In this document: piece by piece, positions 18,317 through 18,368 of the stretch
How the letters are laid out: every line of letters starts with the position of its first letter
Numbering within the stretch: position 1 is the stretch's first letter
DNA from: an uncultured Bacilli bacterium
GTDB lineage: Bacteria; Bacillota_I; Bacilli_A; RF39; UBA660
Assembly (NCBI GenBank): GCA_947623825.1
Contig: CANQHQ010000001.1
Span: forward strand, 17,736-81,735
Length of the DNA: 64,000 nt
Direction: 5' to 3'
Notes under the pieces: model-generated
Database searches by the model: none
What the model was told of the DNA's origin: nothing
Seen by the model: the letters and a program-made list of their open reading frames with translations, nothing else
Translations under genes and position numbers: made by a program

Positions 18317-18368
18317 AGCGGAAGTGACCGTACAGGTTACAGGATTAATTCCTATTTTTTGACTTTTT
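18317..18368 (-). repeat. about 52-nt fragment, about 85% identical to an internal segment (19184-19235) of the pilin-like adhesin gene
   Basis: GCGGAAGTGACCGTACAGGTTACAGGATTAATTCCTATTTTTTGACTTT aligns to GCAGAGGTGACCGTACAAGTTACGGGATAGTTTCCTGTTTTTTGACTTT. The fragment translates as VKSQKIGINPVTCTVTSAI. The adhesin segment translates as AQSQKTGNYPVTCTVTSAT. Confidence 0.7.

Follow-up and report, generated by a model that had tools for sequence, protein, structure and literature searches.

When a short stretch of intergenic DNA repeats part of a nearby gene, is it a silent store of variation for that gene, a switch, or what is left of a lost one? We are interested in one such case in an uncultured Bacilli bacterium. 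The window (the whole 64-kb stretch of DNA that was analysed) contains a type IV pilin-like gene, a partner gene behind it, and a 417-nt intergenic region in which a piece of the pilin gene recurs. A first-pass annotation of this DNA had noticed the repeated piece and offered two readings of it: a decayed remnant of a second paralog, or a mini-cassette able to recombine with the expressed copy. The features needed below are the following (coordinates are those of the window; related loci on other contigs are denoted L001, L002, and so on).

20762-20772, minus strand: G11 tract (coding strand) between a -35-like TTGTCA and TATAAT upstream of the pilin gene (promoter region 20731-20801)
18907-20730, minus strand: expressed pilin-like gene, 607 amino acids (ORF list, PF07963, TIGR02532, AF2, Foldseek)
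19179-19232, minus strand: internal repeat copy, codons 500-518 (QSQKTGNYPVTCTVTSAT), the family-conserved block PATSxKTGTYTVTCTxTS
18910-19134, minus strand: paralog-specific Cys-rich tail, residues 533-607 (DNA homology to L001 and L002 ends at 19135)
18380-18895, minus strand: partner gene, 171 amino acids, with a signal-anchor helix and an extracytoplasmic domain
18313-18366, minus strand: pilin-block relic, 54 nt, which would encode SQKIGINPVTCTVTSAI; no start codon, no ribosome-binding site
approximately 18125-18290, minus strand: partner-family 3' relic, about the last 50 codons (partner C-terminal HMM; frameshift-corrected NKEEKVLGLYQNETELEITYFDIKLVERHH / DTTTGTNYLKSIEKLGYKCGEGFVKEE*)
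18081-18118, minus strand: A/U-rich hairpin followed by a U-run, read from the sequence (11-bp stem in the MFE fold)
18051-18079, minus strand: putative promoter TTGCGC-17 nt-TATAAT for the next gene (16958-17953), read from the sequence

A modular pilin gene and its partner

What kind of gene does the repeated piece come from? The protein encoded at 18907-20730 begins with KKKEQ-GFTLIELLAVFVILAVILGIAV (in a longer stretch, KKKEQ-GFTLIELLAVFVIL...), which is the prepilin N-terminal methylation motif. The gene carries a class III signal peptide, with G/F-T-L-I-E including Glu5 and then a hydrophobic alpha-1 helix, and its product matches both the Pfam family N_methyl (PF07963, E-value 5e-8) and the NCBIfam family TIGR02532. 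The AlphaFold (AF2) model, built on 29 homologues and with a mean pLDDT of 83, consists of a long alpha-1 helix (residues 14-67), a pilin head and a chain of beta-sandwich domains, with a low-confidence segment (545-584) before a short conserved end. Foldseek matches of this model are Ig-domain chains. Because of the prepilin motif, the architecture of the model and these Ig-domain chains, we identify the 607 amino acid long product as a modular type IV pilin-like protein, in which Ig-like domains follow the pilin head in a chain and a Cys-rich tail comes last. The gene had been labeled an adhesin; an adhesive role is plausible, but the product itself is a type IV pilin-like protein.

The homologues of this protein (n = 74) are mostly pilin-like proteins of gut Bacilli MAGs, and the relatives that carry pilin loci are uncultured gut Bacilli MAGs; the contig index has no exact match to the window pilin. 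The gene lies in a chromosomal housekeeping neighbourhood (PolC, DnaE, PrkC, RsgA, MurI), and no type IV pilus machinery genes are present among the window ORFs examined. Our usage of “modular type IV pilin” follows that for PilB of Streptococcus sanguinis (PMC8179133). The window pilin shares with the modular monoderm pilins PilB and PilC of that organism the prepilin motif, a pilin module and modules grafted onto the C-terminus (PMC8179133, PMC9934059). In contrast to PilB and PilC, the grafted parts are Ig-like domains and a Cys-rich tail instead of vWA or lectin modules, the gene stands outside any pilus-machinery operon in the window, and the paralogous loci, of which there are several, all have a membrane-anchored partner dedicated to them.

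The family sequences diverge completely into the Cys-rich tail after FDVKHSY (residue 532), and within the tail only the last 20 or so codons (YxCPxGGxxSGxTCYY) are conserved across the family. The block that concerns us, residues 500-518, is a beta-strand of the last Ig-like domain according to the family alignment and the AF2 model, and lies approximately 14 codons upstream of this boundary between body and tail.

The partner gene starts about 10 nt past the pilin stop codon. The extracytoplasmic domain of its product ends in a family motif, YLxxLxxxGYxC, and the predicted fold is YehR (DUF1307)-like. A sequence search with this protein matched only itself, and a profile search brought up 11 relatives, none of them annotated. 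Neither Pfam nor NCBIfam assigns a family to the partner or to the three uncharacterised flanking proteins, and neither gave a match to a toxin or immunity family. Two of the flanking proteins, which enclose the pilin module (16958-17953, 331/334 amino acids, and 20857-21726, 289 amino acids; both on the minus strand), are distant paralogs of each other (26% identity, E-value 3e-13); the adjoining 338 amino acid long protein is unrelated to them.

The duplicated block and the intergenic region

The intergenic stretch 18313-18366 matches 19179-19232 without gaps at 44 of 54 nt (81%), and the two copies form a direct repeat with a start-to-start spacing of 866 nt. The duplication reported in the first-pass annotation thus exists, with a blastn E-value of 1.9e-9 when the whole intergenic region is compared with the rest of the 64-kb window (the runner-up match has an E-value of 0.02). 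Some of its figures need adjustment. The internal copy had been placed at 19184-19235, off by one from the correct 19183-19234, and at the correct offset the span 18317-18368 agrees with it at 41 of 52 nt (79%), so that an identity of “about 85%” was slightly generous; the best local blastn segment reaches 83.7% over 49 nt. The two translations given, SQKTGNYPVTCTVTSAT and SQKIGINPVTCTVTSAI, are accurate, as is the statement that the fragment is in frame 0 with the TAA stop of the partner gene (18380-18382).

Could chance or low complexity produce such a similarity? In favour of this are the AT-richness of the region and a T-run at one end of the repeat. However, 300 shuffled 54-mers reached at most 31/54 against the pilin gene, compared with the 44/54 observed, and the blastn E-value is far from that of the runner-up. 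The 17-mer core GTGACCGTACARGTTAC has two exact occurrences in the 64-kb window against 0.02 expected, one in the expressed gene and one in the relic, and 13 of 17 residues are identical at the protein level. A neighbouring, independent relic of a partner gene, described below, also supports a common origin. When the copies are aligned together with their flanks, the similarity breaks off abruptly on both sides, and the repeat is not of low complexity. The similarity is far beyond chance, and the probability of a chance or low-complexity origin is negligible.

Five of the 10 nucleotide differences between the copies are synonymous third-position changes (CCC/CCT, ACT/ACC, ACC/ACT, TCT/TCC, GCC/GCT). 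Since half of the differences are of this kind, a conserved element at the DNA level is rejected as the cause of the repeat. The pattern is the one to be expected had the relic diverged while it was still part of a coding paralog. It is closest to the window's own pilin (44/54), followed by L002 (43/54) and L001 (41/54), with at most 37/54 for other species. Functional pilins of the species group agree with one another at 40-49 of the 54 positions, and the relic agrees with the same pilins at 41-44. An HMM of the block also detects it (18284-18364, E-value 0.067). In the family alignment, the relic corresponds exactly to the conserved block just before the paralog-specific tail.

What else does the intergenic region contain? 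Reading 5' to 3' on the minus strand, the partner stop codon is followed by 13 nt, the pilin-block relic (18366-18313), approximately 23 nt, a second relic, the hairpin with its U-run, and the promoter-like sequence. The second relic, which the first-pass annotation overlooked, belongs to the partner family. Shortly downstream of the pilin fragment, the translation reads '...TGTNYLKSIEKLGYKCGEGFVKEE*', which resembles the C-terminal motif of that family. We searched the six-frame translation of the 64 kb with an HMM of partner C-termini (22 partner-type ORFs of other loci, the window's own partner being excluded). The top match is at 18152-18214 on the minus strand (8.7 bits, E-value 5e-4); it ranks above the intact partner gene, and all other matches score negative. 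In another frame, upstream of the end of this relic, lies NKEEKVLGLYQNETELEITYFDIKLVERHH. When the two frames are joined, the score rises to 20.8 bits over positions 101-151 of the 154-position full partner HMM, with an E-value that is optimistic because the frameshift correction was picked after viewing the sequence; the uncorrected top match is independent of that choice. Both scores are modest. The partner relic is interrupted by one frameshift near 18200-18205 and by several stop codons, and its original TAA is at 18125-18127.

A three-frame translation of 17900-18400 contains no start codon, stops between the two relics, and one frameshift. One reading frame is common to the intact partner ORF, the pilin relic and the final part of the partner relic, which we treat as a coincidence. 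An ORF of 85 amino acids at 18018-18275 is rejected as a gene, being the out-of-frame partner relic running on through the terminator and promoter. A structured-RNA reading of the relic region is also rejected: its fold is no more stable than those of shuffled sequences (z = -0.9), and Rfam has no match in 17800-21000. A scan of metagenomes with a 23-mer from the relic gave no match.

Judging from its sequence, the hairpin at 18081-18118 is probably the terminator of the pilin-partner transcript, in which case both relics would lie in the 3' untranslated region. Its stem is GC-poor, and a consensus terminator scan missed it. The terminator-like hairpin that the scan did report (19205-19221) lies antisense within the pilin coding sequence; it is on the plus strand, where there is no gene nearby, and was rejected as a functional element.

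Related loci and the origin of the fragment

Two contigs from other samples carry pilin bodies closely similar to that of the window: 19135-20715 aligns with L001:4307-5889 at 91.7% DNA identity and with L002:1494-3034 at 82.6%. In both cases the homology stops sharply at window position 19135, and the tails, partner genes and flanking genes are unrelated to those of the window. The genomic contexts also differ, with PolC/MurI in the window, SepF-DivIVA in L001 and RNase HII/CvpA in L002. Since L001 comes from the same sample as L084, a contig that carries the window's own locus, the three are probably paralogous loci of one species. In L001, a frameshift (4277-4486) splits the pilin into a 66-aa N-terminal ORF and a 566-aa ORF, reflecting either a pseudogene or a sequencing error at low coverage, and the gene downstream of its partner is preceded by a long leader (6840-7050) with T-box-like or riboswitch-like features.

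Some relatives carry more than one module in a row. L008 and L009 each have two intact pilin and partner modules in tandem. The tandem pilin bodies of L009 are 94.7% identical over 1331 nt, ending just past the block, and their tails and partners are unrelated. In L013 (1106-1821) a second pilin has collapsed in a comparable way: its N-terminal 190 amino acids are fused, out of frame, with the conserved block, and it is cut exactly at the boundary between body and tail, with an ABC-F gene directly after; L013, like the low-coverage contigs, is a metagenome assembly in which artefacts are possible. Some partner-family genes have no pilin of their own beside them (L002, L008, L009). Two of them stand in tandem behind one pilin at L002:3304-4247, and an extra one lies beside a SepF paralog, between two pilin modules, at L008:7544-9130 and L009:7588-9139.

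These findings bear on the first of the two original readings, the decayed remnant of a second paralog, which is supported and can be extended to a pilin and partner module by the partner-tail relic and by the tandem modules of relatives. The feature is an ordinary gene relic, or pseudogene fragment: it has homology to functional genes, a disrupted frame, and intact counterparts in relatives (none of them syntenic). It shares with ordinary gene relics the recognisable homology, the missing start codon, the stops and frameshift and the sharp deletion boundaries, and differs from them in nothing essential. Since a partner-family 3' remnant follows the pilin fragment almost directly, a whole module appears to have decayed, and the 54-nt stretch is probably a non-functional relic of such a second module. 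No intact second module was found at the same chromosomal site, and the synteny of the flanking genes is absent in the 21 related loci.

We infer the order and mechanism of the deletions as follows. A second module, comprising a pilin gene (at least its 3' part) and its own partner gene, would once have lain downstream of the present one. Two junctions would have shrunk it to approximately 240 nt. The first would have removed everything upstream of pilin codon 500 or so, and the second would have fused the pre-tail block, past '...TCTVTSA', with what was left of the second partner gene, roughly its 50 final codons. The frameshift and stop codons would have accumulated afterwards. Situated between the partner stop codon and the terminator-like hairpin, the relic is probably transcribed as 3' untranslated RNA, without function.

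Where did the second module come from? It may have been a tandem paralog; alternatively, a tail and partner pair of older date may have been displaced by recombination at the block. In the latter case the relic would be the footprint of a cassette replacement, in which a new tail and partner recombined at the block and the old pair was pushed downstream and decayed. This is one origin story within the relic explanation, not a functional alternative to it. The relic starts inside the conserved block and not elsewhere in the 1.5-kb body, directly behind the partner gene and in the same orientation, as a replacement would predict. Also in keeping with it are the paralogs, with 82-95% identical bodies, unrelated tails and partners and a sharp boundary just past the block, and the second partner gene of L002, which without a second pilin looks like an orphan. 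However, a tandem duplicate followed by deletion gives an identical result. Next to the locus there is no mobility gene such as an integrase or transposase (neither Pfam nor NCBIfam matches the flanking proteins), and no intact orphan tail is found in approximately 15 related loci. Moreover, orthologous tails are conserved between species (L008 and L010 are 81% identical across the whole module), which suggests that the tails are old types that are seldom swapped. On this comparison of loci, we consider a replacement possible but somewhat unlikely.

The idea has a precedent in the orphan model for CDI and Rhs systems (PMC4927057). Orphan cdiA-CT/cdiI and rhs-CT/rhsI modules likewise lie downstream in the same orientation and start with the conserved homology that precedes the variable part, then continue with a second partner copy (PMC4927057). 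The main genes of these systems, like the pilin loci, have conserved bodies with a sharply different C-terminus and partner. In contrast to the CDI and Rhs orphans, the variable tail at our locus is wholly deleted and the partner copy is truncated (about 50 codons) and frameshifted, leaving nothing deployable, and no integrase or transposase turned up in association with it. As carrier, the monoderm locus has a type IV pilin-like protein instead of a T5SS or T6SS effector; the tail and partner have no match to a toxin or immunity family, and the predicted fold of the partner is YehR-like.

It is tempting to go further and regard the relic as the fossil of a tail and partner replacement within a polymorphic pilin-tip system of uncultured gut Bacilli. 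Such a system would combine four features: several loci of modular type IV pilins, whose bodies of approximately 530 amino acids are kept similar by gene conversion; a Cys-rich tip and a cognate membrane-anchored YehR-like partner of its own at each locus; the conserved pre-tail block as a recombination joint for the exchange or displacement of tips; and, at the window locus, a poly-G promoter switch layered on top. It would be a pilus-based counterpart, in a monoderm, of the orphan-module dynamics of CDI and Rhs. That all four features hold together is improbable, and we offer the scheme as speculation.

The fragment itself, a dead remnant, is of little importance, and it gives the pilin gene no second mechanism of variation. 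As a relic, it is of use as a marker of gene turnover, in which pilin and partner modules are gained, duplicated and lost in an uncultured lineage of gut Bacilli, and it shows the conserved block before the variable tail tending to survive as a boundary.

Possible functions and variation at the pilin locus

Might the fragment still do something? One reading is a silent mini-cassette that donates to the expressed pilin by gene conversion, in the manner of pilE/pilS. The fragment is promoter-less, has the same orientation as the expressed gene and is close to it; the pilin bodies of the species group are mosaic (window compared with L001); and in L084 a tract of 175 nt is identical to paralog L001. 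The mosaicism, however, concerns full-length paralogs and not the relic, and could partly be assembly chimerism (approximately 3x coverage). RecA-dependent exchange usually needs approximately 20-30 nt of identity, and the longest exact run between the relic and the expressed gene, in a piece of only 54 nt that is 81% identical, falls below this at 12 nt. The piece comprises the block of residues 500-518 only, without the variable tail (533-607) that a donor would be expected to supply. A search for further copies of the core found just the two in the 64 kb, and a G4 motif (G3+N1-7 x4) is present on neither strand of the window. Both copies are unchanged in L083 and L084, which differ from the window elsewhere (99.76% and 99.14% identity to the window locus, with 16 and 17 substitutions, respectively): there is no SNP in either repeat copy or in the relic region, which is a weak test of exchange among three near-identical strains. 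At 99.1-99.8% these are nearly the same strain, so that the identity of the relic says little about constraint or decay. In Neisseria, the pilS copies are numerous and carry variable regions and long conserved flanks, and the system uses a G4 element. The window locus resembles pilE/pilS (PMC4023411) in having a promoter-less type IV pilin piece near an expressed pilin, and expressed pilins that are mosaic with paralogs, but it has just one conserved-block piece of 54 nt, whose exact runs do not exceed 12 nt; a G4 motif is absent, and no exchange was observed. The R64 shufflon, where Rci switches the C-terminus of PilV, similarly has alternative C-terminal segments for the pilus tip downstream of a constant body. 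Shufflons depend on a dedicated recombinase and on 19-bp sfx repeats in inverted orientation; at our locus the two copies are in direct orientation, and the neighbouring genes encode no recombinase domain. With the conserved block only, a longest exact match of 12 nt, a single copy, and both copies unchanged in two assemblies, the earlier suggestion of a mini-cassette is not supported, and we consider it very improbable.

The copies might instead act on each other as direct repeats, a deletion between them removing the 866-nt segment with the tail and partner gene and fusing the pilin body to a short C-terminus, …TSAISTLVRKTKTKKRKCWDYTKMKQN*. The repeats are in the same frame relative to the pilin, which would leave the product an open reading frame. 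Low identity and short exact runs would nevertheless make such events rare, the product would cut the last Ig-like domain of the model in mid-strand, and the change would be irreversible; there is no recombinase gene nearby, and neither L083 nor L084 has the deletion variant. Such a switch is, in our estimate, exceedingly improbable. Alternatively, read-through of the TAA could extend the partner with the in-frame fragment (IILVKSQKIGINPVTCTVTSAI... past the stop), behind which there are 44 sense codons. A fragment falls into the right frame by chance one time in three, however, and TAA is an efficient stop codon. The partner proteins of 20 related modules all stop 3-12 residues past GYxC with no extension, and the piece to be appended is predicted to be one isolated Ig-like strand; we find this reading scarcely credible. 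A non-functional relic of a second module is the reading that we prefer.

The pilin family is more interesting than the relic, as a possible system of surface variation or specificity. This interest rests on at least three paralogous loci with near-identical bodies and unrelated tails and partners, on a possible conversion tract, and on the G11 tract in the promoter. Compared with L001, the window pilin body is a mosaic in which 180-nt runs at 100% identity stand beside segments at 75-87%. The 17 differences between L084 and the window all fall within 175 nt (19403-19577; L084:615-789), and all of them match the paralog L001 of the same sample. The tract has the look of a conversion between full-length paralogs; a chimera of the assembly is also possible, because both contigs come from one assembly at approximately 3x coverage and a 180-nt stretch identical between the paralogs borders the tract. 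Among contigs from these samples, breaks fall at the pilin promoter or within the pilin body, a pattern that a multi-copy sequence would lead one to expect. It may be that the pilin bodies are kept similar by conversion across the loci.

The G11 tract is the sole G/C homopolymer of at least 8 nt in the 64 kb. It occupies the spacer of approximately 19 nt between TTGTCA and TATAAT, and is absent from the paralogous loci L001 and L002; a contig from another sample (L086) ends inside it. As far as the sequence goes, the tract is consistent with a promoter that is phase-variable by slipped-strand mispairing.

Possible exchange of a different kind concerns housekeeping genes, when the window is compared with L083. 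The differences are clustered at 15125-15179 (6 in 55 nt) and 13778-13913 (9 in 136 nt), in genes for an alpha/beta hydrolase and a Mur ligase, and the remainder of the 6.6 kb is almost without differences. This clustering suggests recombination tracts between strains.
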